The notes beneath the pieces were generated by a model, which made no database searches, was not told the origin of the DNA, and was given only the letters and a program-made list of their open reading frames with translations. Shown here piece after piece: positions 5,268 through 41,049 of a stretch of DNA of 64,000 nt. How positions within the stretch are numbered: the stretch's first letter is position 1; each line of letters starts with the position of its first letter. The stretch covers positions 744,001 through 808,000 of the forward strand of contig JAYWIR010000030.1 of NCBI GenBank assembly GCA_036172245.1, written 5' to 3'. Both the position numbers and the translations under genes were made by a program. The stretch is from Raillietiella orientalis (Eukaryota).

Positions 5268-7140
5268 ATGGAACAATTTATCTGTTGCTCCTGCAAATCT
5301 CCTCTGGTAGCGCAAGAATCCATCTCAGCAATTCCATGTGGACATATGGTCCATAGCAGCTGCTTACAACATCTTCCAAGGGATTCTCCTGCTGGGTAGC
5401 TTTTTGTGTAAATTACCGTCAGTGCTACTCAAAATGATGTCCCAGTTTTCCTAGATGCCCTATTTGCGACCATGTAATGCAACCTGGTGAAGAAGCAAGG
5501 AGATTGTATTTTACTACTGATTTGGTGGAAATTGACCCTAATGAACTAATCACTCGTGAACAACAACGAGCTGCACTTCAGGAAGCTAGGTATTGTGCAT
5601 TGATCAAATTTCAGCCATCTAAGGAATACAGTGTAACCAGTTGTAAACAAGAATTAGACATGATTTGCAGATTTGAAATATCCATTTACTAACTTGATCA
5701 GGATTTCATGTATGATAGCAAGATATTTGAATCATTCATAAAATTGTTATGAGTTACAGATAATCAAATAATTTATTTTATTTTTCAATACCAGTCAGCT
5801 GCTTTTTCATAAATCAATTGAAAGTTCTTCTCAGAAATACATCTAGAGACTGTTTGGCACGTTTACATGAGACCAGAACTGCTTATGCCGCCTTGAACAC
5901 AGAAAATGGTGAAGTTTTGTACTCCCTGAAGGAATGTCAGGAGTCCAAACTTTGGCATGCAGCAGTCTATGAGAAAATTGCAAAATTACAGCAGTAAGTG
6001 CTTGCTTTTGTTTTCTTTATATTCTTAATGCAAATTTTTTTAGCATTAAAGAGATATTAGAAGCTAGTAGTTCTTACATCGATATGTATAAAGCAAGAAT
6101 TCCAGCTGATCATGAAAATGTGAATATTTTATGTACACTAAGTGGAGTACTACACAGGTAGTCATGTTTTTTAGAGTTTTGTTGTTGTTGATTGTTTTTG
6201 TGGATCTCAATATTTTATCACTTTTGCATACGGATGCATTTTTATTCTGTGAATCATTTAATAGCTGTTCTAAGCAGCTTGAATAGAATGGAGAAAATTT
6301 GCATTCATTTCCTAAACTTCTTTTCTTCTTTTTTTTCTTTTTTTTTCCCATGGTCTCATACAAGATTCCTATTGCCCATTTTCTCTCAAAAATTTGCTTT
6401 GTGGAACTACTAAGGGATGTTTAATTCAAATCAGATATGAGACATTCGTTTCTGGTTTGCTTTGTGCTGAACCAAGTTTTCCAGGGTGCGTTAAAGTTTG
6501 GGAATTGAATGTTTGATGCTATGTCAGCACATTCTCAAATGAGTGTTTCACTCTAGGGAACTTCAGGGATGTCAAGCAGAATTGCAGTTGAAGAAGCAAA
6601 GGCTGGAGAAATCTGAGCAGTTAGTCACAGCCCTCAGAGAATCTGTGAAAGGCTTTGAAAGGAAGCTCGCAAATCGCCAACAGCAAATAGTGCAATTGAC
6701 TGAAGAAAATAAGAAGCTTCGTGACAGTTTGGATCACATAAGTTCAGCTATGGCTTCAACTACTGGTGTCACGAGTGGGGTTTCACATGCAAATTCTGTT
6801 CCCAGGCCGGAAGACACTGGTTCACCTAATCACCAAGGTATCTGAATAAAAGTTGTGTGTGAAAGTGTTTGTTTGCTGTCAAGTTGGTTCATCTGGGATG
6901 TTGGTGCGTCCTCATCAGAAGGTCTCTTCAGAAGGTTGCGGAAGTTGTTTGTCTGAAATGAAAAGGGGCAAACTCGATGGCAGATGGGGTGGTGAGGGTG
7001 CGGCCATGTTTTCTTTGAATTGCGATGACAAGAGACGTTGCAAGCAAGTTAAAGATAAGCAGATAATCCGGATTAGTTGTAAGAACTCTAAAAAACTCAC
7101 CAAAGTTTGGAACTTTTTGTGGGATCGTCCTCATGCTTAA
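5268..7140 (+). CDS. TRAIP: TRAIP-like RING-H2 + coiled-coil E3 ubiquitin ligase, copy 1 (exons 5268-5395, 5446-5589, 5835-5993, 6044-6157, 6557-6837, 6932-7140; 344 aa)
   Basis: Spliced frame is open. The RING CCSC-x14-CGHMVHSSC-x14-CPIC is followed by RLYF (TRAIP has KLFF), then a long coiled coil, then C-terminal KLDGRWGG and TKVWNFLWD, reminiscent of the TRAIP GxDGLGG and KLDTFLWS motifs. An in-frame stop lies upstream of the ATG. The last-exon acceptor is less certain. Confidence 0.8.
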
Positions 7141-7274
7141 CCCTTTTATGACGTGTGTCCCCAAATAAAATTCGTTTTGCTAATGCAAGACCAATGATGT
7201 CACGGGAGGAAAGCAGTGAAGCTGATATACCTCCCTTTGTGCATTGACGGTACCTTCAACATGTGTGCAGAATC

Positions 7275-10600: not shown

Positions 10601-12072
10601 TGCTTCTTGCGCCCCCCTCTTGCGCCCTCTGCTTTTTGTTTGCCCGCCCTCCTACTCGGCCAAGCTCCAGGCGCAAAGCCTGTTGAGGAATGCTCTGTGG
10701 GGACCTGCGAGGTCCAGGATCCGCCTAAAAGACTTGGCGGCTCCGCGTCGGGATGCTGGCTTGGGCATCCTGACGCTGGAGAGAATCGAGCTGCAGGTGC
10801 AGCTTCGGATGTTGGCCCTGTGCGCAAACCTTTGGTCCACTCCGTGGTGCGCTCCCGCGCGCCTGCTTCTGCGGCGCTGCACCGGCAGCGACGGACTTCT
10901 GTCGCTGCGGCCGCACACGGAGCGCCCCACGACAAGTTTCGGTTTCCCTTTGAAACCGCTCTACCGGCTCCTGGCAGCCCAGGAATGGATCTCCTGCCGC
11001 CCAACGAACTTTCAAGCCTGGCGGCAGGAACCGTTGTATGGCTGGACAAAGCACCAGGATGTCTCCCCTCCTGGAACTCCGTTGCGTTCACCTCTCCCCG
11101 TACTGCACGGTGGATGAGGTCTGCAGCAGCCAGGAGAAGTGGACTCGCCTGGCCGTCACGCCGCTCGCCGACGCGCTGTCAGCCCTCAGGGCAAGAGATG
11201 ACAGCTGCGAACCGGCGAGATGGGAGGTCGCCTGCACCATCTCAGGAACAACACGACCCATTGGCGGCTGGAGGACTTGCGAGCTGGCAGACGCCGCCAC
11301 GCCTCGCCACATCCCGAAGGGACTGCTTCGGTGGAGTGAACACTTGAGTGTGCCCCCCGAAGAACTTGTGGTCCCTCCCTCCTGTTTGAACACTTCTGTG
11401 TTCCCCCTTTCGTGGAAGCAGGACGTCATCATGCTGGGCAGTGGGGTTTTCACTCCAACCAGCGGTCGAACCGTGTTTCCGGGGGAGTTGTCATTCCAAA
11501 CTGAAAGCGGTGCGGGGAAGTGGAAACGCTCCCGCACCTGCTCCTGGACTGCGGTGCCCTCCTAGGACTTTGACGGAGGCTGGCTTCAGCTCTCCTGCAC
11601 CAGGGGGACACCGCGAGAGACTTGATGCGCCGCTTCTTCACGCCAGGCGGCCTGTCTTTAGGTGCTGTCGTTGCAACCGTGTGTTGCACCCGCGCCATCG
11701 ACAAGGCCCACCGAGAGCTGGAGAAGCTGGCCATCCTTCGTCAGCCCACCGGATTAGCCAGCACAAGCATGTCGTCGGCTGCCAAGTGGACCCATCTGCC
11801 ACAGGACGTAAGGAGAGAGATCGCCGGCATCCATCGCCGGTTCTGAAAGGAAGGAACGGTCGAACCAAAGACCCCTGTCCCCTGCCCTCCATATTTTTCT
11901 TTTTATTTTTTATACTGGTGTATTTGTGGTCCCCTCCTTCCCGTTCCGGGCTTTCGGTATACCGACCTGCGTGTCGGGGATCCCACCCACTTCGTCTTCT
12001 CTGTATCCTTTGTCCGGGAACTCTGTTCCCGGATAGTTTTTCAATGAACGTCCCGGCGCACCCGGGTGATAA
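10601..12072 (+). mobile_element. Tx1/L1-like element 3' part: post-RT region to 3' terminus
   Basis: LRNALWG..RSRI...LAAPRRDAGLGI post-RT motif and a degenerate CCHC; homologous to 31000-32447; ends tcccggcgcacccgggtgataa. Confidence 0.88.
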
Positions 12073-14712: not shown

Positions 14713-15774
14713 GAAAATATGGAACCGCGTTTGTAGTTGGGCGATCAAACAGGCGCAGTACCTTTGCAGAAAAAAGTTTGTGAAACGAACTCGGAATTTC
14801 TTCCAGTGGGGGGCCACTTTTCGAGCATTCATAAGCGTATTCTTCGCAGGGTGGAGCTTTGCATTTTTTTTTTTTTCGGACAGCAAAACGAAACAGCGTT
14901 TGCACCGACCGCCTTGAGGGAACAGCAGCGCCGTGGCACGGAGTGCCAGAAATCCCATTTGGTGCGTTTTCTCATTCCAGGATGCTTTTTGCATCTTCCC
15001 TCATCTACCAGCAAATGCAAAGCCTCGTAAAGGGGAAAGTGGAAGTGGCGTGCCCGAGGTGCGCAGCTCGGCATGTTGCGAATCGGCGCAGCAGCCATCT
15101 TCGTCATACGTCATCAGCGGCCGTTTCGAAACGGAGCGCCTCGGCCCTGCTCGCGTCGGCGGCGGAGTGGCAACGCGAAGGCCGGTCGGTGCTTCCTGCG
15201 AGCTCTGTGTGGAATCGCAAAGGATGTCGTCTGGAAAGGGATCGACTTCAGCATCGAATTTGCTTCCGCATTGTGTGCGAGGATGCATCGTTGAATAGCG
15301 GGAAAATGCAGAGTGAATATGTACTCCCACTCCAGGGAAGAGAGGAAAATAGCGGAGTGATGTTCGGTGCAGAAACTGAGCCGCTTCGTGTGCCATAAAA
15401 TGGAATCGCAAGAGATATGGTAAGTGCGATGTTTGATCCAATTGATCGAATTCAAACAGTGTTGGATTACTGTGGTCAGGTTTTGTTTGTGTTTCCCTCC
15501 CTTGGAGTAACCATAGTAATCTTACAATAGTCTATTAACCAAAGTCTAACATTGGAGCAGCATCCCCACCTGTGCTGCTGTGTTTTCTTTTTCTGTCTTT
15601 TCTAGACGGAGTTTTGTTCTCGTTCCGAAATTTGAAGTTTTGGCACCAGAGCACCTTTTGACATCTTGCTGCAAGAAGCAGGTTCTTATCTTGACATAAT
15701 TTTGTAAAGCATATTCCATAATGTTTATTAGGCGTACGTTCCTGTTGAAACGTTTCCACTACTGAGAGAAAAGG

Positions 15775-17648
15775 ATGGAACAATTTATCTGTTGCGCCTG
15801 CAAATCTCCTCTGGTAGCGCAAGAATCCATCTCAGCAATTCCATGTGGACATATGGTCCATAGCAGCTGCTTACAACATCTTCCAAGGGATTCTCCTGCT
15901 GGGTAGCTTTTTGTGTAAATTACTGTCAGTGCTACTCAAAATGATGTCCCAGTTTTCCTAGATGCCCTATTTGCGACCATGTAATGCAACCTGGTGAAGA
16001 AGCAACGAGATTGTATTTTACTACTGATTTGGTGGAAATTGACCCTAATGAACTAATCACTCGTGAACAAGAACGAGCTGCACTTCAGGAAGCTAGGTAT
16101 TGTGCATTGATCAAATTTCAGCCATCTAAGGAATACAGTGTAATCAGTTGTGAACAAGAATTAGATGTGATTTGCAGATTTGAAATATCCATTTACTAAC
16201 TTGATCAGGATTTCATGTATGGTAGCAAGATATTTGAATCATTCATAAAATTGTTATGAGTTACAGATATGCAAATAATCTATTTTATTTTTGAATACCA
16301 GTTAGCTGCTTTTTCGTAAATGAATTGAAAGTTCTTCTCAGAAATGCATATGGAGACTCTTTGACACATTTACATGAGACCAGAACTGCTTATGCCACCT
16401 TGATCGCAGAACATGATTCAATTTTGTCCTCCCTGAAGAGATGTGAGAACTCCAAACTTGGCAATGTAGCAGTCTATGAGAAAATTGCAAAATTACAGCA
16501 GTAAGTGCTTGCTTTTTTTTTTCTTTATATTCTTAATGCAAATTTTTTTAGCATTAAAGAGATATTAGAAGCTAGTAGTTCTTACATCGATATGTATAAA
16601 GCAAGAATTCCAGCTGATCATGCAAATGTGAATATTTTATGTACACTAAGTGGAGTACTACACAGGTAGTCATGTTTTTTAGAGTTTTGTTGTTGTTGAT
16701 TGTTTTTGTGGATCTCAATATTTTATCACTTTTGCATACGGATGCATTTTTATTCTGTGAATCATTTAATAGCTGTTCTAAGCAGCTTGAATAGAATGGA
16801 GAAAATTTGCATTCATTTCCTAAACTTCTTTTCTTCTTTTTTTTCTTTTTTTTTCCCATGGTCTCATACAAGATTCCTATTGCCCATTTTCTCTCAAAAA
16901 TTTGCTTTGTGGAACTGCTAAGGGATGTTTAATTCAAATCAGATATGAGACATTCGTTTCTGGTTTGCTTTGTGCTAAACCAAGTTTTCCAGGGTTTGTT
17001 GAAGTTTGGGAATTGAATGCTTGATGCTATGTCAGCACATTCTCAAGTGAGTGTTTCACACTAGGGAACTTCAGGGATGTAAAGCAGAATTGCAGTTGAA
17101 GAAGGAAAGGCTGGAGGAATTTGAGGTGTTAGTCACAACCCTCAGAGAATCTGTGCAAGGCTTTGAAAGGAAGCTCGCGAATCGCCAACAGCAAATAGTG
17201 CAATTGACTGAAGAAAATAAGAAGCTTCGTGACAGTTTGGATCACATAAGTTCAGCTATGGCTTCAACTAATGGTGTCACGAGTGGGGTTTCACATGCAA
17301 ATTCTGTTCCCAGGTTGGAAGACACTGATTCACCTAATCACCAAGGTATCTGAATAAAAGTTGTGTGTGAAAGTGTTTGTTTGCAGTCAAATTGGTTCAT
17401 CTGGGATGTTGGTGCGTCCTCATCAGAAGGTCTCTTCAGAAGGTTGCGGAAGTTGTTTGTCTGAAATGAAAAGGGGCAAACTCGATGGCAGATGGGGTGG
17501 TGAGGGTGCAGCCATGTTTTCTTTGAATTGCGATGACAAGAGACGTTGCAAGCAAGTTAAAGATAAGCAGATAATCCGGATTAGTTGTAAGAACTCTAAA
17601 AAACTCACCAAAGTTTGGAACTTTTTGTGGGATCGTCCTCATGCTTAA
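15775..17648 (+). CDS. TRAIP: TRAIP-like RING-H2 E3 ligase, copy 2 (exons 15775-15902, 15953-16096, 16342-16500, 16552-16665, 17065-17345, 17440-17648)
   Basis: Same exon structure as copy 1 with an open frame; many replacement changes in exons 3 and 5. Confidence 0.8.
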
Positions 17649-17782
17649 CCCTTTTATGACGTGTGTCCCCAAATAAAATTCGTTTTGCTAATGCAAGACC
17701 AATGATGTCACGGGAGGAAAGCAGTGAAGCTGATATACCTCCCTTTGTGCATTGACGGTACCTTCAACATGTGTGCAGAATC

Positions 17783-18817
17783 ATGGAACCTATGGCCATT
17801 GGTTCCTCGAATAGTCCCAACAAGAGTGATTTGGGGTGCTCTCAGTATTTGCCCAGTTTTCTTTTGGGTGAATCTGTGTTGTCTGCATGTCCCACGAGCA
17901 GGCAATCCGCAGGATGCTCCGATCCTCTCCTCCGATCCTCTCCGAAGGTGGGAAGCCACTGTTTTCTCCGAATGCGGATTCTTTCTTCATCTAGGTTGGA
18001 CAGGTGGGATATGTGTGCCGTGAGCGTTTTGTTAACTGTTGCGTGTTTCAGATCTTTTGGGCGTCGTTTTTCTCCGGAAGGACACGTGAATTTTTCCCAT
18101 GGTCAGGCGGCGAGTTGTAATAAAATGAGAACGTCTGGCTGCAATGCAGGGCCCCCCGTCATCTCCCAGCTGCTGTCCCCATCGCTTCCTTCCAGTTGCT
18201 TCAGCGAATCTCGATCCCTTCAACCCAGTTTGGGACTGTGAGTGGTGCAGATGACAATCCGAGTGCTTGCTTAGTCAGCAGACATCTGATGACAATACTT
18301 GGGTGACGGTATTTGGCTTTCTTCCATCAGCTTGCGCGTACATTCTGGAACAGTTTTCGTCCTATGGGAATGTACTTGAGCACATACTTCCATCTCGTGG
18401 TAATTGGATGCATCTCCATTATGAAAACGCTCTGCAAGCCCACAAAGCCTTGTGCAAAAATGGCCACATACTTGGAGATGCCATTATGATTGGCGTAAAA
18501 GCGTGTACGCACAAAGTAAGCAGCAAGTGAAAATGTGTGTGAATGCGCGAATTTTCGAAAACGTTGTTGCAGGACGCCACGAGGGATGCCACTTTGAGTG
18601 GCAGCGGACCGAGGAAAGTGGAACACGTGCAAGGGTACACACCTCCATCACGACTTTTGTCATCTTCTAGTTGGGCAGCGAAAGCTAATCACGACGTCAG
18701 TTGTCATCCTGCGCGCATTCCTGTTAATCTGCTCCGTTGTAGGTGATCCCGTGTTCCCCAGTGCCTCAAAGGAGTAATGGCCTGATGAATCGTGCAATGG
18801 AATTGCTGGGATGGTGA
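17783..18817 (+). CDS. NUP35: Nup35/Nup53, copy 2
   Basis: As copy 1, except for a compensating -1/+1 indel pair near 17959-17980. Confidence 0.92.
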
Positions 18818-20749
18818 AGTACACGTTTCAAGTCGAAAGATTCGTCATTTTGTGTGGTTCAGCATCTCGCAGAGTCATTAAAAATATTCAACATGGTTAC
18901 ATGGCTTCGAGGTGTCTAATTGTGATGAACATTTGTGAATGCATCGTAAGGGAGTGGTAATTGAGGTTTTCTTCTCCCTCTCCGTCTTTCTGTTGACAGC
19001 GGTGGCTTAAACTGGCGGGAAGTTTTCCTAGTTGGATCACTTTTGATGCTTGAAGCAATCCAGCCGGATGAATTCTGGGAAAATTCCCCCCACTTTTCAT
19101 GGTTGAGGTTTGGGGAGGTTTTTTTTTTTTTTTTGCTGATGTTTGTCCAGTAACGATCGACATCTGATGCTGACCGCTCTCGAATTGTGCAGTGCTGCCT
19201 GTATCTGGATGGTAATATTTGCACATCAGGTTTCGACGAACTGGCTCATGTTGTCGTTGTGACAAAGTGTTCGTTTAATTGATCTAGCTTTATGAGGTAA
19301 TGGTGAGGTACAGGAAAATATCATTTGAAGCTCAATCAATTAAGAAATACGTATTTTCATAGTCAAGGGAATGCTATAAGAATTGCAATTTACTTAATCT
19401 GATCAGGACGAGTTGCGAAAAAGTTTCATCTGACTTCATCTCTGCTTCAAGTGTTACTCTTAATTTTTATAGATATGGGCTTCTTTCGTGTATACGGTTC
19501 ATTGAGGAATTCTGTTAGAAATGTGGCTATTCTGTTCGTGTGCAGTCTTTTCCAAAAGAGCTTTATGTTTTTTTAGGGATGGATTTTCTTTCCAGAAGCG
19601 TCATTCTAGCAATAATGGTGTCTTTGCTAATTTGCATTCTCTTTTGTTTGGGGCTGCATGCGTTTTTGGAAGGTTCGAGATTGATTCTTGACTGTTGGCT
19701 CTTTGAGAAAATTCAAGGATTATTTGCTTAAGAATGTTGATTGTTCTCAACATTTGAATTATGAGGCAATTCGCTAGTAAGGGTGCCCCAGTCTAGTTGT
19801 GATGAAATAGAGGATCATATCTGTAGACTTATAGGATGTTTGTGGGTGAACTGATTGGTGTTACATAGAGGAGTGCAAAACTGGCAATTTCTGCTTTCTA
19901 CCAATGCTAACTGAACGTGAACTAATTTGTCCACTCGCAGACTGGGCATGTAAAACTCCAGTTATATGAAATAATACTAACTGTGGCGTTTGTAATTGTT
20001 TTAAGTGTCTACTAAAGTGAGAAAACACGACATTGGGCTATTTTGTTGTGTGTTTTTGGCGTTAGAATGGAGAAGTAGTAAGGTGTCGGTGTTCAGTGAG
20101 GTACTGTGTAGTGTACCCTTAGAACCCTTGGTTTCTAAAATTCTCGCCGTTGAAAAACAAAACGCTTTTATCATAAGAATTAGTTTTTGTCCGTGTGTGT
20201 ATCCTGTCGTTTATTATTGCAATGAGTGTTGTCCACAGGGACATTTTTCGCTGAATCAAAAGTTGAGAGCCCGTTTCATTTCCGACATTTAAGATTGGAA
20301 TTTAATGAAAAAGGAAACGATTTTACTGTATAGAAATGGTAAAATACATGAATTTTGTCAACAGTGTGTAAGATTCACAGCAATAGAGGTGAACCGCGGT
20401 AGTGGGTTGTGTTTGTTTTCCGATGTGCCACGAGACAGATATAAAATGAATAGTAAGATATCAGCATCTTAACGCGAAACGCATGCTAGTATCTGTATTC
20501 CGTATTGTGTAGTTTGATTTGGAAACTGCATTGATATGTTGTGACGTCATCTATCGGTGAGGAACAGCTTTCAGCAAATGCAATACGAGTTTGATAGTCA
20601 GAGAAGACCTACAGTTAACTCCATGTAACCTGTTTTCCTTATGCAAGATTTTCCCCAGTTCAACAGGCGGTGGGGTGATTTTCTTTGACTACAGGTTGTG
20701 ACAAAAGCTCAACAAATGCTTGAGCACACTTTTAACTCAAGTTTCAACA

Positions 20750-22246: not shown

Positions 22247-24341
22247 ACGATTGTGGCCACCATTCTTTTCTTCATGCTTAGCGTATAGATCAATCCGCCA
22301 AAATCCGAGTTGATATCAGGTTCACATCAGCTTGCACCCAAACGTTTCTGCGCGCCCTGTTGCAATGGTCCTACCCACCACAACTTGAAGAACCCGCCAC
22401 CCTCCGATGGGAGAACTCTGCAGGTCGTAACAGCTCATCCCCAGCTGTCGGGTAAAGTGTAACTCGAGCGTGACTTACCTCTATGGCGATTCGCTTCGGC
22501 AGAAGGGACTCCTGAGAAGATTCCGAATTCCCCGGTCGCCACACTGCTGACTACGGCAACCCATACCTTTCATGTAATGTAGCGACGAATCAGTTACTTC
22601 AGCTGAACGCTTGGTTCACCTCACAGCTCCACTCCTGCTTTACATAATTCCCCACTGGGCCCGCCAGCACCAAGCGCAAGTTTGGCAGTGGTCCTTGAGC
22701 TTTACGAATGTTTTGCAACCTAGCAATGACTTGTGAGTAATAGCGGTTTTTAAAAGTGTGATGCGAGCTGCCGACATGGTGGAACAGGACACGCTTCCTT
22801 ATTCCTAAGCTTTTAATCCATCCGACCATAGTGTCCCGAAGCTCCTAATAAGCAAACCCAGTTACAGTGGGACATCGGATCCATCGTACGGGTAACAACC
22901 CAACACACCCAACACAGTGGTCCTCAGGGTAGGAGAAACTGTTCGCGTGGCATTCAAATCCTACTCTGCGGCAGCTGATGGAAACTGGTACATCGGAGTC
23001 TCCTGCAGGTAAAATAGCTGGGACTTCTGAAATCAGCATCTGGGACAGAGAGTTTCAAAATGTAGATGCCTCTACTGGGAATGTGGATCTCCAGGTTAGT
23101 ATCGTCACGATCCCCATAAATGCCCTTCAAACTAGACGGTTCATACTTCTACCTTACACAGGAGAAAATGTTGATCTATACCGGCGAAATATGGCCTTTG
23201 GATCTCTCAAGGCCATCACCTCATCGGTCAGGGCATTTTTTGTACAGGGAAAGCGGGAATTTGCTTCGTGTCTTGGTTAACAAAGGGATGGACATCAATG
23301 GAGACTCCTCAAAGGAATTGCCGAAAATATAGCGAGGGCTGTTTACTATGTTGGCTCTTTCAGAGGGCTGTTGTACTTTTCGCAGTTTGCTGAACTTAAA
23401 CATCAAAAACAGAAAAAGATACGATGGATTTCCCCGTTATCAGGCAAACACTTTTAAGGATCGATCAAACTCCAGGGTTCCTAGGCTCTTAAACATCGGA
23501 GCCTTCTCTCCGAAGAAGCAAGCTGCAGGCATCAACTGAATTTGACGAGAATGCCTGAGCTTTAAATATGAGGTCGCCGCCTGTCCCATGGCTACTTCTT
23601 TAAATGTTGCAGTCGAAACAATTTGGTATTCTCTCGGCTCTACTGTCTGAGGTGTTATTTCTGCATTGAAAACACGGAAAAGCACTGCCACAAATTCAAA
23701 GAGTGGCACGAGACAAAAGATTGATCTTTCGTATGGCTGGCAAGAACAAACAAGTGAGAACAACAGAGGTCTCGATTCCAAGGAAGGGAAGTGGAGCAGG
23801 AAAGGGAGTCTGCACCACACGCATAAGCTAAGACCGTACTCAGGACAAATCTGGTTTTCCCAAAGAAGAAGGGATAGGGAGCCATAGAAAACACCGGAGT
23901 AATTTCCCTCGCACCAAAGAAACAGATCATTGAATAACAGCCCCCGAACGATTGGATCCTCAGCACCTAGAATGGTGGTGAACTACGAGGCTATGATGGG
24001 ACGATGACAAACAGTCCAAGAACATAAAAAAAACCATGAAACGAGCAGAAAAGAAAGTGCTCGTGTTGCGGGGTGATGCTACCTTGAAAGAAATGGTCTC
24101 ACGGGGACCTCCGAAACTCACTTTAGAAAATTATAACAACAAGAAAGATCAGAGGCAAATCAGATGTGCGATGAGCGGCCGCATGGAGTGGAAAGGAAGA
24201 AACCTAGAAGGAAACACACCACTCAATCCGAAGGAAAGTCGGCAAAGCTGAAGAGCACACTGCACAAGGAAACTAATAACAGAAACAGAATTTAAACAAG
24301 AGGACTTGTGAATTTTCCATTTGTTATTATTACGTTCTCAG
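22247..24341 (+). repeat. Segmental repeat B, copy 2
   Basis: Direct repeat of 12618-14712. Confidence 0.97.
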
Positions 24342-25403
24342 GAAAATATGGAACCGCGTTTGTAGTTGGGCGATCAAACAGGCGCAGTACCTTTGCAGAA
24401 AAAAGTTTGTGAAACGAACTCGGAAGTTCTTCCAGTGGGGGGCCACTTTTCGAGCATTCATAAGCGTATTCTTCGCAGGGTGGAGCTTTGCATTTTTTTT
24501 TTTTTCGGACAGCAAAACGAAACAGCGTTTGCACCGACCGCCTTGAGGGAACAGCAGCGCCGTGGCACGGAGTGCCAGAAATCCCATTTGGTGCGTTTTC
24601 TCATTCCAGGATGCTTTTTGCATCTTCCCTCATCTACCGGCAAATGCAAAGCCTCGTAAAGGGGAAAGTGGAAGTGGCGTGCCCGAGGTGCGCAGCTCGG
24701 CATGTTGCGAATCGGCGCAGCAGCCATCTTCGTCATACGTCATCAGCGGCCGTTTCGAAACGGAGCGCCTCGGCCCTGCTCGCGTCGGCGGCGGAGTGGC
24801 AACGCGAAGGCCGGTCGGTGCTTCCTGCGAGCTCTGTGTGGAATCGCAAAGGATGTCGTCTGGAAAGGGATCGACTTCAGCATCGAATTTGCTTCCGCAT
24901 TGTGTGCGAGGATGCATCGTTGAATAGCGGGAAAATGCAGAGTGAATATGTACTCCCACTCCAGGGAAGAGAGGAAAATAGCGGAGTGATGTTCGGTGCA
25001 GAAACTGAGCCGCTTCGTGTGCCATAAAATGGAATCGCAAGAGATATGGTAAGTGCGATGTTTGATCCAATTGATCGAATTCAAACAGTGTTGGATTACT
25101 GTGGTCAGGTTTTGTTTGTGTTTCCCTCCCTTGGAGTAACCATAGTAATCTTACAATAGTCTATTAACCAAAGTCTAACATTGGAGCAGCATCCCCACCT
25201 GTGCTGCTGTGTTTTCTTTTTCTGTCTTTTCTAGACGGAGTTTTGTTCTCGTTCCGAAATTTGAAGTTTTGGCACCAGAGCACCTTTTGACATCTTGCTG
25301 CAAGAAGCAGGTTCTTATCTTGACATAATTTTGTAAAGCATATTCCATAATGTTTATTAGGCGTACTTTCCTGTTGAAACGTTTCCACTACTGAGAGAAG
25401 AGG

Positions 25404-27236
25404 ATGGCTATGATACAGAGGGAAGTATTTAATTGCGTCATCTGCTCAGCAGTTCTAGAACCTGTCGAATCCATCAGAGCAATTTCATGTGGGCATGTGT
25501 TCCATAATTGTTGCCTTTTTGACTGGATAAACAGGTTGCTTTTATAAGTTCTGATTAGCTCTACTCAAAATCATGTTCTAGTTCTTCAGCGACATGCCCT
25601 CAATGCCGTTCACAAGTGGAATACCTAAATCAACTTACACCATTGATGGATTGTAGTGATGTGAATGAAGTTCCTCAGAAAGTAGAAGACTATCAAGCAG
25701 AAATGGCCTTAGTAAGGTATCATGTATTGAATAAATGTCAGCTATCTAAGGAATGCAGTGTAATCAGTTGTCAATGAGAATTAGATATGATTTCCAGATT
25801 TGAAGTATCCATTTAGTAACTTGATCAAGATTTCATGTATGGCAACATGATTTTTGAATCATTCATTAAATTTATTTTATTTTTGAATATCAATTAATTG
25901 TTTTGATGATACATGAATTTGAAATTCCTTCATCAGAAAAGACACTGCTGAAGCGGATGCACACATGGAGATCATTTTAGAAAACACTATCCATTTGGAG
26001 TCACTTGTTGCAAAGAACAAAAAGTTGCTGTCAGACTGTGAGAACAGATTAAGTGAACTGGTGGATGCTGAAAACCAACTCGGATTACTTCAACAGTAAG
26101 TGTGTTAATTAATCTTGATCTTTATTGTAGTTTTTTTTTTCTTTTTAGCATTGAACAGATATTGAATCCAGATAATGAAGGGTACCTTCTACAGTTTCGT
26201 GTTCCAGATGATGAGGGAGTGAACACTTCATACAGGGCATGTGAACAAGTACAACGGTAGTGATCTTCAAAGTTTTGTCATTGTTGATCGTTTTTGTGGA
26301 TTTCAATATTTTATCACTTTTGCATATGGATGCATTTTTATTCTGTGAATCATTTAATAGCTGTTCTAAGCAGCTTGAATAGAATGGAGAAAATTTGCAT
26401 TCATTTCCTAAACTTCTTTTCTTCTTTTTTTTCTTTTTTTTTCCCATGGTCTCATACAAGATTCCTATTGCCCATTTTCTCTCAAAAATTTGCTTTGTGG
26501 AACTGCTAAGGGATGTTTAATTCAAATCAGATATGAGACATTCGTTTCTGGTTTGCTTGGTGCTAAACCAAGTTTTCCAGGGTGCGTTAAAGTTTGGGAA
26601 TTGAATGTTTGATGCTATGTCAGCACATTCTCAAATGAGTGTTTCACTCTAGGGAACTTCAGGGATGTCAAGCAGAATTGCAGTTGAAGAAGGAAAGGCT
26701 GGAGGAATCTGAGGAGTTAGTCACAACCCTCAGAGAATCTGTGCAAGGCTTTGAAAGGAAGCTCGCGAATCGCCAACAGCAAATAGTGCAATTGACTGAA
26801 GAAAATAAGAAGCTTCGTGACAGTTTGGATCACATAAGTTCAGCTATGGCTTCAACTACTGGTGTCACGAGTGGGGTTTCACATGCAAATTCTGTTCCCA
26901 GGCCGGAAGACACTGGTTCACCTAATCACCAAGGTATCTGAATAAAAGTTGTGTGTGAAAGTGTTTGTTTGCTGTCAAGTTGGTTCATCTGGGATGTTGG
27001 TGCGTCCTCATCAGAAGGTCTCTTCAGAAGGTTGCGGAAGTTGTTTGTCTGAAATGAAAAGGGGCAAACTCGATGGCAGATGGGGTGGTGAGGGTGCGGC
27101 CATGTTTTCTTTGAATTGCGATGACAAGAGACGTTGCAAGCAAGTTAAAGATAAGCAGATAATCCGGATTAGTTGTAAGAACTCTAAAAAACTCACCAAA
27201 GTTTGGAACTTTTTGTGGGATCGTCCTCATGCTTAA
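25404..27236 (+). CDS. TRAIP: TRAIP-like RING-H2 E3 ligase, copy 3 with divergent N-terminus (exons 25404-25534, 25582-25716, 25937-26095, 26149-26256, 26653-26933, 27028-27236)
   Basis: MAMIQREVFNCVICSAVLEPVESIRAISCGHVFHNCCLFDWINSSSATCPQCR is close to the canonical TRAIP RING (CGHTFHxxCLxxW...TCPQCR). All exons are open with the same phases as copy 1. Confidence 0.85.
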
Positions 27237-27370
27237 CCCTTTTATGACGTGTGTCCCCAAATAAAATTCGTTTTGCTAATGCAAGACCAATGATGTCACG
27301 GGAGGAAAGCAGTGAAGCTGATATACCTCCCTTTGTGCATTGACGGTACCTTCAACATGTGTGCAGAATC

Positions 27371-28405
27371 ATGGAACCTATGGCCATTGGTTCCTCGAAT
27401 AGTCCCAACAAGAGTGATTTGGGGTGCTCTCAGTATTTGCCCAGTTTTCTTTTGGGTGAATCTGTGTTGTCTGCATGTCCCACGAGCAGGCAATCCGCAG
27501 GATGCTCCGATCCTCTCCTCCGATCCTCTCCGAAGGTGGGAAGCCACTCGTTTTCTCCGAATGCGGATCTTTCTTCATCTAGGTTGGACAGGTGATATGC
27601 GTGTGCCGTGAGCGTTTTGTTAACTGTTGCGTGTTTCAGATCTTTTGGGCGTCGTTTTTCTCCGGAAGGACACGTGAATTTTTCCCATGGTCAGGCGGCG
27701 AGTTGTAATAAAATGAGAACGTCTGGCTGCAATGCAGGGCCCCCCGTCATCTCCCAGCTGCTGTCCCCATCGCTTCCTTCCAGTTGCTTCAGCGAATCTC
27801 GATCCCTTCAACCCAGTTTGGGAATGTGAGTGGTGCAGATGACAATCCGAGTGCTTGCTTAGTCAGCAGACATCTGATGACAATACTTGGGTGACGGTAT
27901 TTGGCTTTCTTCCATCAGCTTGCGCGTACATTCTGGAACAGTTTTCGTCCTATGGGAATGTACTTGAGCACATACTTCCATCTCGTGGTAATTGGATGCA
28001 TCTCCATTATGAAAACGCTCTGCAAGCCCACAAAGCCTTGTGCAAAAATGGCCACATACTTGGAGATGCCATTATGATTGGCGTAAAAGCGTGTACGCAC
28101 AAAGTAAGCAGCAAGTGAAAATGTGTGTGAATGCGCGAATTTTCGAAAACGTTGTTGCAGGACGCCACGAGGGATGCCACTTTGAGTGGCAGCGGACCGA
28201 GGAAAGTGGAACACGTGCAAGGGTACACACCTCCATCACGACTTTTGTCATCTTCTAGTTGGGCAGCGAAAGCTAATCACGACGTCAGTTGTCATCCTGC
28301 GCGCATTCCTGTTAATCTGCTCCGTTGTAGGTGATCCCGTGTTCCCCAGTGCCTCAAAGGAGTAATGGCCTGATGAATCGTGCAATGGAATTGCTGGGAT
28401 GGTGA
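27371..28405 (+). CDS. NUP35: Nup35/Nup53, copy 3
   Basis: Appears identical to copy 1. Confidence 0.95.
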
Positions 28406-29178
28406 AGTACACGTTTCAAGTCGAAAGATTCGTCATTTTGTGTGGTTCAGCATCTCGCAGAGTCATTAAAAATATTCAACATGGTTACGTGGCTTCGAGG
28501 TGTCTAATTGTGATGAACATTTGTGAATGCATCGTAAGGGAGTGGTAATTGAGGTTTTCTTCTCCCTCTCCGTCTTTCTGTTGACATCGGTGGCTTAAAC
28601 TGGCGGGAAGTTTTCCTAGTTGGATCACTTTTGATGCTTGAAGCAATCCAGCCGGATGAATTCTGGGAAAATTCCCCCCACTTTTCATGGTTGAGGTTTG
28701 GGGAGGTTTTTTTTTTTTTTTTGCTGATGTTTGTCCAGTAACGATCGACATCTGATGCTGACCGCTCTCGAATTGTGCAGTGCTGCCTGTATCTGGATGG
28801 TAATATTTGCACATCAGGTTTCGAAACGAACTGGCTCATGTTGTCGTTGTGACAAAGTGTTTGTTTAATTAATATCCGACCGTTGATCCTCGCTCCTGGA
28901 TGGTCCTCACCGCGTGCTAAGTTTTCCTATTGCACCGATCTGTGTGCGTTGGCAGCGTGAGTTTGCTCACGGGACTTTCCCCCCTTTGTACCAGCAAGCA
29001 AAATATTCCTAAGTGGTTGCGAAATTTCCCTTGTTCTTCCCTGTATTCTCCTTTTCGAAATACAGCAGCGGAGCTCCAGGGATTGATGAGCAGGAGGAAA
29101 TGCAATTGTTCGAAGAGGTGGTATGCGACCGCAAGTGCTGTCTTTAGAGGCAGTATTTCCAGCGCTCCATGCAGTAAG

Positions 29179-32100
29179 GTGTGGATCGTCGAGGTCTCGT
29201 GCTGGCCGAGCTCTGCAACCATTCCAGGCTGGTGTTCGAGCTTCTCCCGCCTGGCAAGGGGCCTCCTCCGACGCACGTCTGAAGGCAGCCGACCCACCCG
29301 CTTAGCCATCCGGTGGCGGCGGAGCATCTTCGCCAGCACCTCCTGGACTTCGTCGTTCGGGAGCTCGGGTGATCTGAAAGGATCGGTCCGTGTTCCCCTT
29401 GCACCTGCTCCCCCGCGGCTCCGGGGAAGGAGTGGCCAACAGCAGAGCGTTTGTGCAGTTCCGAACTGTTTCCAGATGCCCGGACGTCCGGCACCTGGCG
29501 GAGTACAAGGCGAGGGCCGAGCGCCAGGTTTGGCAGTCTGGAGCGGTTCGTCTGCTCGATGACCGGGGTCGGGAATGCTAGGCCGCGGTCGACTTTTGTC
29601 ACCTGGATATGCCGGGGCATTTATTATTAAAAAAATTTTTTTTACAAAAATCTATAATGAAGTCTTGAAGAATGTTTGTTTCTTGGTAGAACACGTTCTG
29701 CGACGCTCGGGAGACTTGCCGTGAACCAGTACGCAGACCAGTGTGGTCCTGCCCAGCGGCGAAGGGAAAGGGAAAAGCAAAGCAAAAATAAACAACAACA
29801 ATTGAAAAGGGCAGGAAAATGTTTTTTGAGGGAGAGGAGGGCAGGGAATGGATTACTGTTCGCTTGGATTGGTCCTCTGCATCCTGTTCAGGATACTGGA
29901 AAGTATCCTGAACAGGATGCAGAGGACTGCTCTGGAATTATTCCGGTGGGGCCATATTGATGCGGTCTCCAAGAAGATCGTCGTCCATTGCATGGCGTCC
30001 CTGCTGTTTTGGCGTCTTTGCTCTCCAGCTTGCCAGGATTCTGCGAACACAGCAGAGAACTGCTAGAGACTCGGGGGGGGGGGGGGGCATGATGCCTCAA
30101 GAGGCGCCGGAAAATATCCTTAGGGTTGCCTACTGGAAGATTCAGAATCGACGAGAGTCGATCCCAAAGTTCACAGAGGTCGACGCAGTCTATTAAGGGA
30201 TGCGGGAAGGTTTCCCTTTCGCTGCACTCTGCATAACGGGCATTCACGCTCCCTACTGTCCAGTGCGAGAGGCGTGCTCTGAATGGGATTCTCCAATGCA
30301 AAAATAGCAACGCCGTCTCTTGCCACTTCATGGGAAGGGTGCCACTGTCCCAACACACTGAGGGCCACTTCGCCTTCTCCTAAGGGATTGTCGAGCAGCT
30401 CGTCCCACAGCATAAGTCCTTTAGGCGGCACGCTCGGGGTCGCAGCGTCCTCTAGCTGCCGAGTTACCCACACCTTCAACCGTTTTTTCCTTCCTCCGAT
30501 GAGTCACGACACTTCCCACAATGCCCGTCTGATGCCGTTTCTAGAGTTCCTGAGGGAGGGCAACACTGGGACAGGGGGGGTAAAAGAAGCCCACAGAGCT
30601 TGTGTGGGTTGATGATTATCTCCTGTAGGGGTTGTCGAGCGTATGTTCCTTTTGCCCACGTACGCCGTCAGTGGCCGCCTATGCAGATGACCTGTTTCTC
30701 TTTTTACCCATGTCCACTCCGGCGTCCAGTCTCGAAGATTCCTTCGAGCTGATTCGTCGGGGAGCGGGAGTGAGCGTAAACAGGAGCGAGTGTGGTCGTT
30801 CCTGTGGGTGCTAGGTGGAAGGAGCAGTCCGACTGGAACCGCCTGGGGATTCCCGAGGCCAGGTGCTTGAAGTACCTCGGATTGCCGTTGGGCAACTTCA
30901 GTCCAGTAGAAGTGTAGTCAGAAGGCAGAGAGTGCTCTGGACTCGTTCCAAGGTGGCAAGTTCATCTTGCCGGCGCGGACTTCCGTTTGGAACACCTTCG
31001 TTGCCCTCCTCCTCCGCCCCTTCTTTTTTGTTTGTGAGCCCTCCTACTCGGCCAAGCTCCAGGCGCGACGCCTGTTGAGGAACTCTCTGTGAAGAACTGC
31101 GAGGTCCAGGATCCACCTCAAAGACTTGGCGGCTCCCCCTCTCCGCTCCGACTTTGGTCAGGATCGGACTGCAAGTGCAGTTCCGGATGTTGGCACTTTG
31201 TGCCAAATTTTGGACTACTCCGTCGTGTGCTCCTGAACTCGTGTTACTGCGGCGCTGCACCGTCAGCGAAGGACTGCTTTCGTTACTGCCGCACACCGAG
31301 CGCACCACAAGAGGCTTTGGCATCCCGCTGAGGCAGCCTGCTTCGCACCTGGAAGAATGGAAGCCCATTCTTGGATCCCCTGCCTCCCAACGAAATTTAA
31401 CGCCTGGTGGCAGGAAGCTTTGTTGTCCTGGGCAAAGCATCACGAAGTGCCGCTCATCGGACTTTGTTGCGTACACCTTTCCCCACTGTGTCCAGTGGAA
31501 GATGTGCTGAAGGAGCAGGGCAAGTGGACTCACCTAGCCGCCACGCCCCTTGCCGCAGCGTTGTATGCCCTCAGGGAAAGAGATAGCAGTTGCCTACCGG
31601 TGGGGTGGGAGGTCAGCTGCACTATCGCAGGAGCAACCCCACCCATGAACGGCTGGAGAACCAGCGAGATGGCAGACGCCTCCACGCTTTCCCAAAGGAC
31701 TCCTTCGAAGGAGCGAACTGCTGAGTGTGCCTCCCGAAGAACTTGCAGTCCTCCTTCGTGCGTGGACACTTCTGTGTTCCCCCTTGCTTGGTAACAAGAC
31801 GTGCTTTTGCTGGTGCATTGGGGATTCCATTGCAACCAGCGCATGAACATTGTTTCCGGGGGAGTTGCCTCCCCGAACTGCAGAAAGTGCGGAGAAGTGG
31901 AAACGCTCCCTCACTTGCTCTTCGACTGCAGTGCCCTCCAACGCTCTCCGACTACGGAGGCTGCCTTCAGAGCCCTTGCACCAGGGGAACACGGCAAGGA
32001 TTTTGATGCGCCTCTTCTTCACGCCAGGCGGCCTGTAGTTAGGTGCAGTCGTCGCAACGATCTGTTGCATCCGCGCCATCGTCACGGCCCACCTCCAGTT

Positions 32101-32447
32101 GGAGTCGCAGGTGATTTTTCGAGAGGTCACCGGATTAGCCGACGACCACATGAAGACGGCTACCGGGTGACCTCATCTTCCAGAAGAAGTGAGGAAGATC
32201 TCCGGCATTCAACGCCGGTTCTGAAACGAAGGAACGGCCGAAGCCAAAGACCTCTGTCCTTAAGCCCCCATATCTTTATTTATATTTTTTTTATGCATTT
32301 ATTTGTGGTCCCCTAACTCTTATTCTTAACTTTCGGTGTTACCGACCTGCGTGTCGGGGAGCCCTCCCCTCGAACTTCCGCTTTCTTTGTCTAGGAACTT
32401 TGTTCCTGGATAGTTTGTAATAAACTCCCTGGTGCACCCGGGTGCAA
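29179..32447 (+). mobile_element. 5'-truncated Tx1/L1-like element flanked by an 18-bp target-site duplication, with an antisense fragment inside
   Basis: TSD agcgctccatgcagYaag at 29161-29178 and 32448-32465. Contains a linker homologous to 9110-9270, VAAYADDLFLF, KYLG, CRKCGEVETLPHLLFDC, and the terminal motif at 32425-32448. Confidence 0.9.
29594..30625 (-). mobile_element. 5'-truncated antisense Tx1/L1-like element (CCHC and 3' UTR)
   Basis: LPMKWQETALLFLHW and ECSERETFPHPLIDC; terminal motif at 29594-29620. Confidence 0.88.
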
Positions 32448-36192: not shown

Positions 36193-36859
36193 GCCTTCAT
36201 GGACCGTCTCAGGAAGGCAACACGGAAAAACTCGGAGATCCCGACCTGCGGCCAAGGCGCGTCCGGCGTTACCATCTGACCCCTTCCAGGGAATAAGCGA
36301 ATTCGCGTCATTCCACTCGACGCATCCCAAAACACGGCGGCAGCCTCGAGAAGGAGCGCGAAAGAAAGGAAGGAGAGAACGGCACGCAGAGAGGTGGGGG
36401 CCCGCTACTTGTTCCTCCCTTTCCCCCTTCCTCCCCACTTCGCAACCGCGGGAAATCCAGGCGTCCCACTTCGCGCGGTCCTCGTTCGCTTCGCTTGTTC
36501 CTCGGGAACGGCGATGTGGCAAGAGCTGGAAACTCCCAGAACGTACGCGGACCAGCTCGGCATGCTGATGGCGCGGCCCGAAGACCAACGCAGCCGCGGC
36601 ATGCACGGGATGCGACTTGGCGGCGCCCGTGTACGTTCTGGGAGCTTTGGACGACCGAGCGCGGACCTCGAGGGCTCGGAGCTGCTGGGAGCAGGCCTCC
36701 AGAGGCTGGTGACGAGGCCGAAACTGTAAACAAGGAGGCCTGCTGCAACAGGCAGGCAGCAAAGCCTGCAGCAGGTGGAATATGAGGTTGAGGGTTCGAA
36801 CCTCGGCGGCGAACCCGTGTGGCAACGCCCTGATTTCAACCAGTGACTTTCTCACTCTC
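36193..36859 (+). repeat. Unclassified ~660-bp GC-rich repeat; inverted copy at 51868-52546
   Basis: The ORF translations of the two copies are near-identical on opposite strands. Confidence 0.95.
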
Positions 36860-38650: not shown

Positions 38651-39146
38651 CTGCGTAACCCAAAGATGGAATGTAAATTTCTACATACTTCGGCTGACGC
38701 GGGTTGGCTCGCATTCGGGTGCGGTACTGGTAGCTGAAAAATCGGATGCCTTTCGTGAGTGGCCGGGATTGAGAGGCGACCCTTCGGGGTCCTTCAAGGA
38801 AACTGAGTCAAGGAGTCGGCTCCTTTCCAGTTGTGCAAAGGAGACGTGTGCGAAGGACTCTCCATTGCGTAGCATGGAGCTGGTAGATTGATATCCCTAT
38901 GGAGTTCAAGGAGCGTGCCGCTCCCTTCGGGAAGTGTCCTTCCTCGAAAATTGGGGAGCGTACCTTCGGGGTTCTCATCAGAGGAGCAACAAGGAGCGGT
39001 TTCCTTGCTGGTTCCCTCAGGAGAAGAAATTCGAAGAGCGGATCCTTTTCGGGTTCCCTTCAGAGAAGGAGCAATGGAGCGGATCCCTCAGAAGGTCTTT
39101 TCAAAGAGAATAAGGAAGAGGTTCCCCTATGAGGTTCCCTTCGGAC

Positions 39147-39732
39147 ACAACCAGCAGATGCGGGGAATGAGGATCCTTCCTGCACCTGCTAGTGGACTGT
39201 GCTGCCCTCCGGACCCTACGGGGACGTTTCGGAACGATCCTCCGCATCCCAGTCGGCGCTCCCAGGGACGTTTCACGGCTCCTCTTCGTTCGGGACTCCC
39301 TGCAGCCGGCCTCAGCCCCAGCAGCACTTTGCTGCCTACACGGGATTGCGGTGGCCTGGAGCGAAGCCGACGGAGGAAGAAGCGGGAGGGACGCCGTCCA
39401 GTCCGCAGTTCGCTTTCTGAGGATGGCGGCCAGATGGCTCCACCTGGCACCTATTCGAACGGATCCTGCTGTCATCCTGGAAAGGATGCAGACCCCCTCC
39501 AGCGGACAGGGGTCCCTTCCCGACGTTCCCAAAGATTTTTGATTTCTTTTCATTTACTCTTTTTGTCTTCTCCCATCCCCCCCTCCGCTACCAAGGTCAG
39601 CCCCTCCAGCCTGAGCACCGGCGATCCGACAGGTGCATGGAGGAACTGAGTGCGGAAGGACCAGGTGTCCTACCACAATTTCGGAGTTTCTTTTGAATTT
39701 TAAGAAACGCCCAGGCGTGGTCCGGGTGGAAA
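39147..39732 (+). mobile_element. Tx1/L1-like 3' fragment inserted in repeat X
   Basis: LHLLVDCAALRTL...WLHLAPIRTDPAVILERMQ, T-rich tract, terminal motif at 39708-39732. Confidence 0.88.
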
Positions 39733-41049
39733 TCGGAGGCAAGCAGGGTGGAGGGTGTGTTCCCTTCGTGGTTCGCTCCCAGGCGTGAGAGGAACGGACT
39801 CTCTTCTCCGGAGTCCTTCCTGGATCCATAGGATGTCCCCTCCCAGGGTCACCCCCTACGACTCGAAGAGTTACACTTACCCTCGGGTGGAAGGGACAAC
39901 GTCAAAGAGCTTCAAGAGCCTCCCTCACAGTTCTCCTCCCACGGAGGCAAGTGGGTCGCGGGATGTCCGCACTCCAGCACGTGGTCGCGCTTAGCAGCTT
40001 CCACCTCATCTTTCTCTCGTGCCCTCGGCAGTCCAAGACGATCCACAGCATCCCTTCACGGGGTGGAGGCTGGGGGAGGGTTAGTGGCACGCGCGCGCCG
40101 CGTGCAATGAGCCCGCTGACGTCACCACCGCTGACATTGTGGTCGTGGCCGTCCTGAATTGCGGGGTCGTAGCAACGGAAGCGGCGACCGGCCACCGTGT
40201 GGCCACGGCGACAGCTGCCAGCCCGATCGCCATGGAGGCAACGACCCCCTTAGGGAAGGAGAGGTTCCGGCCGTCGTTGCCACCTCTCCCCGCTCGGTTC
40301 ACAGCGCCATCCTTCCCGAGAGGAGGCAGCAGCTCGGGGTCTCTTCGCCCCTGCAGGCCCTAACCGCATCCTCCCTTCCCTTCCGTCCTACCTTCTCGCC
40401 GCCTGGAGGCGCGCGTTTCGGGGCGAGTCTTGCCGGGCTTGCGAGGTCGTGAGGCGGGTTCCCATGGGGAGGAGGAAGGGGAGGGAGAGAAGGAAGGAAG
40501 GTAAGAAAAGGGCCGTGGTGGCTGATGCCGTGGTTCCGAGTGCGTCCCGACGACGAGATGCCGCCGCCTCCGGCACGCGGGATTTCAGGCACATGTCCCC
40601 TGCGAATGATCGACCTCTCAGCTCCTCCGAAGTAAGCAGCAGCCACCACAGCAGCGTACACTGTGGAGAGCTTGGTCCAGGGGCGATCACAATGGTGAGA
40701 GGGGCTCGCGCTCGATCTTTGGGGTGGAGACGATGGCCCTCCTCAGGCCTCTCCCGTGTCTTCCACGTCTCCGGCGGAGACGTGGTCCAGCTGCCTCCAG
40801 AAGGCATAGGATCGGTCCGTTCCGGGATGGCAATTTTTTCTTGCCGGAACGGGCCGTAGTGTGGAACACGTTTGTGGCCTCTCTCTTCCTCCCTGCTTTT
40901 TGATTGCCCTCCACGGAGTAGCATTAAAAGGTGGACGAAGGACCTCTGAGAATCGCCCTGTGGGGCACAGGGAGGCTCGAGTCCTCCTGAAGGACTTGTG
41001 AGCTCCGAGTCGCCATGGTGGTCTCTTCCTTCTGACGCTAAGAGGCCAG

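Follow-up and report, generated by a model that had tools for sequence, protein, structure and literature searches.

An island of divergence with exons more diverged than introns in the third copy of a tandem RING-H2 gene of Raillietiella orientalis

We analysed a stretch of 64,000 nucleotides of Raillietiella orientalis DNA (GenBank assembly GCA_036172245.1, contig JAYWIR010000030.1, positions 744,001 to 808,000 of the forward strand), hereafter called the window; all positions below are those of the window. It contains three tandem units, each consisting of a RING-H2/coiled-coil gene followed by Nup35, both on the plus strand. In the third copy of the RING gene (copy 3), an island of divergence extends over 25408..26327 (+), from codon 2 to ~70 nt into intron 4, and inside this island the exons are more diverged from copies 1 and 2 than the introns are. 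This sharply bounded segment, first noticed in a reading of the sequence alone, is confirmed as real and is well above chance. The explanation we favour, at a probability of about 0.58, is that the island arose by diversifying selection on the N-terminal module, with the remainder of the array kept homogeneous by gene conversion or unequal crossing-over.

The island has sharp edges

A BLASTN comparison of the window with itself places the three units at 4208-8850, 14713-19355 and 24342-28873, with start-to-start distances of ~10.5 kb and 9.6 kb. The homology between units 2 and 3 begins farther upstream, at 12618 and 22247, respectively. To the left of the island, the identity of copy 3 to copy 1 amounts to 99.16% (24342-25407), and its alignment with copy 2, which covers 22247-25407, has 99.87% identity, or 4 differences in 3161 nt. 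To its right, over 26250-28873, the identity is 98.9% to copy 1 and 98.3% to copy 2. In the interval 25408-26249, there is a single BLASTN-alignable block, which is 158 nt long (25715-25872), has 85-87% identity and lies within intron 2. The left edge is exactly where the sequence-only reading had put it, just after the start codon: the copies part after ATGG, 4 nt into the coding region. That reading had also seen identity return just past the exon 4 donor (26256/26257). The return is real, but its position is off. The first 75 nt of intron 4 contain 9 mismatches and a 3-nt gap, and the next ~175 nt contain no differences; therefore, the old segment runs to ~26327.

Each part of the copy 3 gene was aligned globally with its counterparts in copies 1 and 2, with 100 shuffles for each comparison. 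Exon 1 (25404..25534), which contains the start codon and zinc ligands one to six of the RING-H2, has 62% identity (z 5.9). Exon 2 (25582..25716), with the final Cys-x2-Cys pair of the RING and a linker, has 64-67% (z 2.5), and exon 3 (25937..26095), which encodes part of the predicted coiled coil, has 62-66% (z 0.4). Exon 4 (26149..26256) is 108 nt long, versus 114 nt in copies 1 and 2, and has 65% identity (z 5.0); its homology is still recognisable in the protein alignment. Because shuffled sequences also score ~0.61-0.67 identity at the same gap settings, the island exons are near saturation, and their amino-acid identity to copies 1 and 2 is about a quarter. The identity of the introns is 72-80% for intron 1 (25535..25581, 47 nt, GT-AG; z 7.7), 83-85% for intron 2 (25717..25936, 220 nt; z 22.5), the core conserved block of which is the one aligned by BLASTN, and 76-78% for intron 3 (z 1.3). 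Intron 4 as a whole has 96-97% and exon 5 has 97.6-97.9%. Identity shifts at every exon-intron junction of the island.

Exon 3 is the most diverged exon, and its gapped alignment is no better than chance. Without gaps, copy 3 matches copy 1 at 58 and copy 2 at 60 of the 159 positions, while the shuffle mean is 42 (sd 5.4). As the sequence-only reading had described, this exon is barely alignable and yet has the same length, 159 nt, and the same phase in all three copies, and intron 2 still aligns easily. We note that a stretch of ~28 nt in intron 2 of copies 1 and 2 (5746-5773; 16253-16280) is missing from copy 3, which explains most of the difference in length between 245 and 220 nt.

Exons outpace introns within the island

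Counted over introns 1-3 and the initial 75 nt of intron 4, copy 3 has 69 differences from copy 1 in 381 positions (Jukes-Cantor distance 0.21) and 60 from copy 2 in 380 (0.18). Taken one by one, the proportion of differences is 0.20-0.28 for intron 1, 0.15-0.17 for intron 2, 0.22-0.24 for intron 3 and 0.125 for the first 75 nt of intron 4. Intron 2 alone has 36 mismatches in 217 positions against copy 1 and 32 against copy 2, and its longest identical run is 16-17 nt. Since intron divergence is similar throughout and no long identical run is present, there is no sign of recent conversion tracts, nor any that intron 2 alone stands out. For exons 1-4, the Nei-Gojobori method gives pN of 0.50, dN of 0.80-0.82 and dS of 1.15-1.25, a saturated value against which dN/dS is below 1. 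Non-synonymous divergence in the island exons is ~4x the intron divergence.

An excess of exon over intron divergence needs either accelerated change of the exons or secondary homogenisation of the introns; mere retention of an old segment does not produce it. The sequence-only reading had proposed an old module kept by selection. Its idea of a mosaic with selection on the protein stands, supported indirectly by the differences between copies 1 and 2 described below, whereas mere keeping is insufficient. That reading had also held that intron or synonymous divergence equal to or above exon divergence would speak against it; the introns turn out to be far below the exons, but the synonymous estimates are high and saturated. 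We read the contrast between exons and introns as accelerated amino-acid evolution of the exons. The non-synonymous rate is above the synonymous rate between copies 1 and 2 and above the intron rate in copy 3.

Flanks of copy 3 are homogenised and mosaic

The N-terminal module measures 0.85-0.9 kb; outside the island, and with the ragged unit end set aside, copy 3 has 6 private differences. Where copies 1 and 2 disagree, copy 3 agrees with copy 2 at 7 of 9 upstream sites, and with copy 1 at 6 of 8 intron 4 sites and at 12 of 16 located downstream of the gene. Exon 5 gives a mixed result (7 to 6). This mosaic ancestry fits gene conversion or unequal crossing-over among the units and agrees with the earlier claim that recombination homogenises everything outside the segment. 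High overall similarity, a local peak of divergence and mosaic exchange, three features of islands of the Teshima-Innan type under interlocus gene conversion, are observed here.

Copies 1 and 2 contain a younger island around exon 3

Of 4679 alignment columns, only 89 distinguish copies 1 and 2, and nearly half of those differences are found within ~250 bp around exon 3. This younger island occupies 5763..6010 in copy 1 and 16270-16518 in copy 2 (+), covering exon 3 with the 3' part of intron 2 before it and the beginning of intron 3 after it. The 24 differences in the 159 nt of exon 3 are divided into 23.5 non-synonymous and 0.5 synonymous (dN 0.217, dS 0.015), and the corresponding counts for exons 1-4 are 27.5 and 0.5. 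By codon position, exon 3 is identical at 40 of 53 first, 44 of 53 second and 51 of 53 third positions. With a synonymous-site proportion of 0.215, a complete lack of synonymous changes among 28 has a binomial probability of 0.0011, which becomes ~0.01 by hand calculation if one synonymous change is allowed. The near absence of synonymous change suggests that selection rather than mutation bias drives the exon changes, since mutation aimed at exons would hit synonymous sites too.

The difference between exon 3 (24/159) and introns 1, 3 and 4 pooled (10/499) is clear (Fisher p 5e-09). Intron 2 is the most diverged intron between these two copies (12/245), with 7 differences in the 97 nt of its 3' part and 5 in the 148 nt of its 5' part. 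Such a rise in the 3' part is expected if its neutral sites are linked to an island under selection.

A second cluster of differences is located at the 3' end of intron 4 and in the first 100 nt of exon 5 (6469-6671, 16977-17179 and 26565-26767 in copies 1, 2 and 3, respectively). In exon 5, copies 1 and 2 each have their own changes relative to copy 3.

Copy 3 is an intact RING-H2 gene

The RING gene has five coding exons separated by GT-AG introns and encodes ~275 residues, with the RING-H2 at the extreme N-terminus, followed by coiled-coil-like sequence and a Ser/Thr-rich tail. Copy 1 lies at 5268..6846 (+; exons 5268-5395, 5446-5589, 5835-5993, 6044-6157 and 6557-6845) and copy 2 at 15775..17354 (+; exons 15775-15902, 15953-16096, 16342-16500, 16552-16665 and 17065-17353). 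In copy 3, the frame of exons 1-4 is free of stops, whereas the two alternative frames contain 13 and 16, and after nucleotide shuffling of these exons the frame was open in 0 of 5000 trials. All four of its introns are GT-AG, and its exon phases are the same as in copies 1 and 2. Copy 3 is an intact, working-looking gene. We considered whether it is a pseudogene or under relaxed constraint and rejected this, because the frame is open and relaxed evolution cannot outpace the introns.

The eight-ligand spacing places all three proteins among the RING-H2 zinc fingers (Pfam zf-RING_2, PF13639): the signature C-x2-C-x(9-39)-C-x-H-x2-H-x2-C-x(4-48)-C-x2-C is complete in the three spliced models, at residues 11-52 in copy 3 and 6-50 in copies 1 and 2, and spans exons 1-2. 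On this basis the genes encode putative E3 ubiquitin ligases. Family, homology and structure searches were queried with single exons, so that exon 1 represents three quarters of the domain. With this query, copy 3 reaches 30.6 bits for zf-RING_2 (E 4.1e-07), above the cut-off of 27.3 bits, and copy 1 reaches 25.8 bits, below it. The best solved-structure match is the Arkadia RING-H2 for copy 3 exon 1 (E 5.1e-06) and RNF126 for copy 1 exon 1 (E 9e-04). At what we take to be the usual E2-contact positions, Ile after the first Cys and Trp after the sixth ligand, copy 3 has both residues (CVIC, FDW), and in copies 1 and 2 they are replaced. As the RING-H2 of copy 3 is the more canonical one, much of the exon change probably occurred on the copy 1/2 lineage.

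Exon 5 of copy 3 (26653..26941, +) encodes coiled coil and the Ser/Thr-rich tail and ends with TGA at 26939-26941; Pfam gives weak coiled-coil matches to this exon, all under the cut-off. An AATAAA at 26941-26946 overlaps the TGA; as read from the sequence, the gene may therefore end here rather than run into the sixth exon that the sequence-only reading had assumed.

Selection and blocked conversion as the proposed origin of the island

We propose that the tandem units are kept almost identical by interlocus gene conversion, unequal crossing-over or both, and that exons 1-4, which encode the RING finger and the first coiled-coil exons, have been under recurrent selection for amino-acid change. 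In copy 3, this would have resulted in an island of divergence of ~0.9 kb. The diverged exons would block extension of heteroduplex, and the sharp edges would arise because heteroduplex cannot pass the diverged exons, so that conversion tracts in the flanks halt there. On the left, they would end where the first codon has diverged, and on the right no more than ~70 nt past exon 4. A block on conversion by sequence divergence would explain the position of these edges. The introns of 47-220 nt between diverged exons would be cut off from exchange and would age at the neutral rate. They may therefore serve as a clock since the last exchange with copies 1 and 2, at ~0.2 substitutions per site, while the exons would have outpaced them ~4x at non-synonymous sites and come close to saturation. 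Copies 1 and 2, with their ~250-bp island around exon 3, would represent an earlier stage of the same process. The partner bound by the variable surfaces may itself be changing, as a pathogen, a selfish element or a reproductive factor would; a changing partner is the usual cause of such patterns.

Several observations weigh against this explanation. Between copies 1 and 2, exon 5 taken alone has 11.5 non-synonymous versus 1.5 synonymous differences, which is not significant (P 0.44). The residues of exon 3 that vary between these copies do not avoid the predicted heptad core, in which 5 of 20 fall compared with an expectation from 15 of 54 positions; therefore, change confined to the surface is without structural support. 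Introns 1 and 3 measure ~50 nt, part of which may be constrained by signals for splicing; moreover, the alignment of intron 3 is no better than shuffles. Finally, copy 3 is highly diverged from copies 1 and 2 at synonymous sites as well. Nei-Gojobori dS reaches 0.86-0.96 for exons 1, 2 and 4, exon 3 is saturated, and among degenerate codons for the same amino acid in copies 1 and 3, 17 of 47 use a different codon. By a rough estimate, the latter is ~2x what the intron divergence predicts, and it fits exons that are older than the introns. Synonymous counts are unreliable where nearly every codon has changed, and chance identities in weakly aligned stretches inflate them.

Alternative explanations

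The high synonymous divergence is what an ancient paralogous or allelic module would produce. According to this explanation, which is close to the proposal of the sequence-only reading, both exon types are very old and are held by purifying selection for distinct functions, and conversion repeatedly homogenised the non-coding sequence, including the internal introns at an intermediate time. Synonymous divergence from 0.86 to saturation then exceeds the intron divergence of ~0.2 because the exons are older, the codon differences noted above would follow, and so would the third codon positions of exon 3, which are identical between copies 3 and 1 at just 17 of 53. The human opsin genes, as far as the consulted part of the source goes (PMC3924837), provide a precedent. 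Such a history, however, needs a separate conversion tract for each of four introns, two of them only 47-53 nt long, with every tract ending at the splice junctions. The introns themselves are fairly evenly diverged, have no identical run longer than 16-17 nt and show no recognisable recent tract. Their lengths are also nearly unchanged between copies 1 and 2 and copy 3 (50/47, 245/220 and 50/53 nt for introns 1-3). In addition, the same exons show positive selection rather than conservation between copies 1 and 2. We consider an ancient module unlikely; the synonymous counts are the chief argument for it.

A recent ectopic import would not require long-term resistance to homogenisation. Here the module of copy 3 would have been pasted in from a diverged family member elsewhere, and the contrast between exons and introns would reflect the history of that paralogue. 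The extreme youth of the copy 3 flanks, with 4 differences to copy 2 in the upstream 3161 nt and 6 private differences overall, agrees with such an event, as does the razor-sharp left breakpoint. Against it, tblastn with the three RING-gene proteins found the three copies alone in the 64-kb window, with no further family member that could be a donor. Accelerated exon evolution would also still be required for exon divergence to exceed intron divergence, now in the donor. We regard an import as quite improbable.

If the whole segment were equally old, the similarity of the introns could in principle come from a functional element in them, chiefly in intron 2, such as an intronic RNA or a regulatory or splicing element. 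The 158-nt block of intron 2, as the sole BLAST match inside the segment, would agree with this. No Rfam family is found in 25300-26700 at E up to 1, however; the consensus fold is weak (-16.45 kcal/mol), with compensatory change in 0 of 42 predicted pairs; introns 1 and 4 are similarly intermediate in divergence; and intron 2 is, unlike a constrained sequence, the most diverged intron between copies 1 and 2. Such an element is therefore very unlikely to explain the island. An assembly artefact, in which copy 3 would contain reads that belong to an unlinked paralogue or to another haplotype, is hardly credible either, even though near-identical repeats are difficult to assemble: there is no N anywhere in the window, and units of 4.6-6.7 kb at 98-99.9% identity are resolved with different spacers, which points to a long-read assembly; the spacers 3' of units 2 and 3 are mutually unrelated, so that these units are not duplicated haplotigs; and a switch between reads needs shared sequence, so that the source would have near-identical flanks and the mosaic would be real wherever it is located.

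Relation to known systems

Peaks of divergence around selected exons have been described for duplicated genes under gene conversion, and in the human red/green opsin genes the introns are homogenised while exon 5 is diverged, according to the consulted part of the source (PMC3924837). Like the opsin case, and the model of Teshima and Innan, the RING array consists of near-identical tandem paralogues with a short region of coding divergence, next to which the non-coding sequence is more similar. It differs from the opsins, as the same part of the source presents them, in three respects. The island here comprises four exons at saturation rather than a handful of fixed substitutions; its internal introns are intermediate (16-18%) rather than homogenised; and in the younger pair of copies dN greatly exceeds dS, which points to continuing diversification rather than the preservation of one new function.

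A second parallel is found in the snake toxin genes (phospholipase A2, PLA2, and three-finger toxins; 'ASSET'), where exon segments are radically changed and introns are >85% similar, as reported in the consulted part of that work (PMC2711939). The shared features, within what that part covers, are a tandem family, radically changed exons with conserved introns, and non-synonymous change at or above synonymous change. Those toxins are secreted, whereas the gene described here is of an intracellular type, a RING E3 with a coiled coil. The locus combines the opsin-type and the snake-toxin-type patterns in an intracellular-type RING E3 gene.

In domain order, the closest parallel we discuss is TRAIP (TRAF-interacting protein, known as NOPO in Drosophila). 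This E3 ligase carries its RING at the N-terminus and a coiled coil after it, as described in the consulted part of the source (PMC7253899). The likeness is in architecture alone, namely a RING at the extreme N-terminus with a coiled coil directly after it, and the ~275 residues of our protein compare with 469 in TRAIP. No TRAIP chain is present among the 46 solved-structure matches of copy 3 exon 1 at E up to 1. TRAIP, the protein of which has a PCNA-binding tail at its C-terminus, is a conserved single-copy genome-maintenance gene, not a fast-evolving tandem family. The RING of copy 3 presumably resembles that of TRAIP around the last Cys pair, and we do not file the gene as TRAIP.

Restriction factors of the TRIM5 type have a RING, a coiled coil and a variable recognition domain under positive selection. 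The genes described here share with them a RING E3 with a coiled coil, gene duplication and positive selection. In contrast to TRIM proteins, the selected region here is the RING/coiled-coil part itself. Pfam finds no B-box or SPRY domain in the exons scanned, and TRIM chains are only weak solved-structure matches (E 0.4-0.6).

Protein searches with exon 5 (for longer proteins), with the Nup35 RRM exon and with copy 3 exon 1 returned no homologues. A HMMER search of 1.84 billion representatives with exon 5 gave 2 matches (E 2.7e-05 and 6.1e-05; 26-28% identity), both to proteins of 671-683 residues with 4-6 matched stretches each, and we rejected them as coiled-coil noise. A metagenome scan with exon 5 gave 3 loci at 35% over ~52 residues; these were judged unrelated, as the full models align with them by tblastn in the coiled coil only, without a RING. 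In the ESM Atlas, copy 3 exon 1 matches generic RING clusters only, with scores of 0.88-0.92.

Significance

If our explanation is correct, the array offers an unusually clean natural case in which concerted evolution of the flanks, selection for amino-acid change and divergence that blocks conversion act together. A single locus shows islands of two ages, one of ~250 bp with 15% exon divergence between copies 1 and 2 and one of ~900 bp that has reached saturation in copy 3. The phenomenon has already been described in other gene families, so that the value lies in a new case and not in a new principle. The locus also carries a warning for annotation and phylogeny, as trees built from the exons and from the flanks of these copies would give opposite histories.

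A small RING/coiled-coil ligase for which single-exon searches detect no relatives in very large protein collections is a candidate conflict gene. One could go further and imagine a lineage-specific ligase family engaged in genetic conflict, such as restriction of viruses or transposons, or a reproductive or meiotic-drive conflict. Its N-terminal module would be an exchangeable specificity cassette, of which two deeply diverged types persist next to each other in one array under balancing or diversifying selection, perhaps even beyond species boundaries, while homogenisation continues in the promoter, C-terminal half and Nup35. This extended scenario is speculative, and we think it distinctly unlikely. 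Within it, the co-duplication of Nup35 might tie the ligase functionally to the nuclear pore.

Nup35 and other features of the window

Nup35 in unit 3 (27371..28403, +) lies directly downstream of the RING gene and was co-duplicated with it; our model is partial, and its 3' end was read by eye. The gene is identified by the Pfam family RRM_Nup35 (E 7.3e-29). It is triplicated together with the RING gene, at 7275-8007, 17783-18515 and 27371-28103. In the first 216 codons, copy 1 equals copy 3. In copy 2, a -1 indel and a +1 indel, separated by 18 nt, alter 7 residues and restore the frame, and one Ile is replaced by Leu. The model requires a GT-AG intron of 37 nt at 27826-27862, directly before the RRM exon. 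Other short introns in these genes are 47-53 nt long, and introns this short hint at a compact-intron lineage. The intron structure, together with the conserved C-terminal motif of Nup35, is suggestive of a metazoan-like eukaryote.

Two G+C-rich blocks, 10611-12068 downstream of unit 1 and 31003-32444 downstream of unit 3, are 75% identical over ~1.45 kb. The latter carries a Cys/His-rich open reading frame (ORF) that in our judgement resembles a retroelement tail, and the two blocks are probably copies of one transposable-element family. Sixteen long ORFs elsewhere in the window, including its G+C-rich right half, were scanned against Pfam, and no family was found. This right half (55-63% G+C) also contains two pairs of inverted repeats: 36193-36847 and 51892-52546, which are 99.5% identical over 655 nt, and 39115-39919 and 45251-46056, which are 97% identical over 806 nt.

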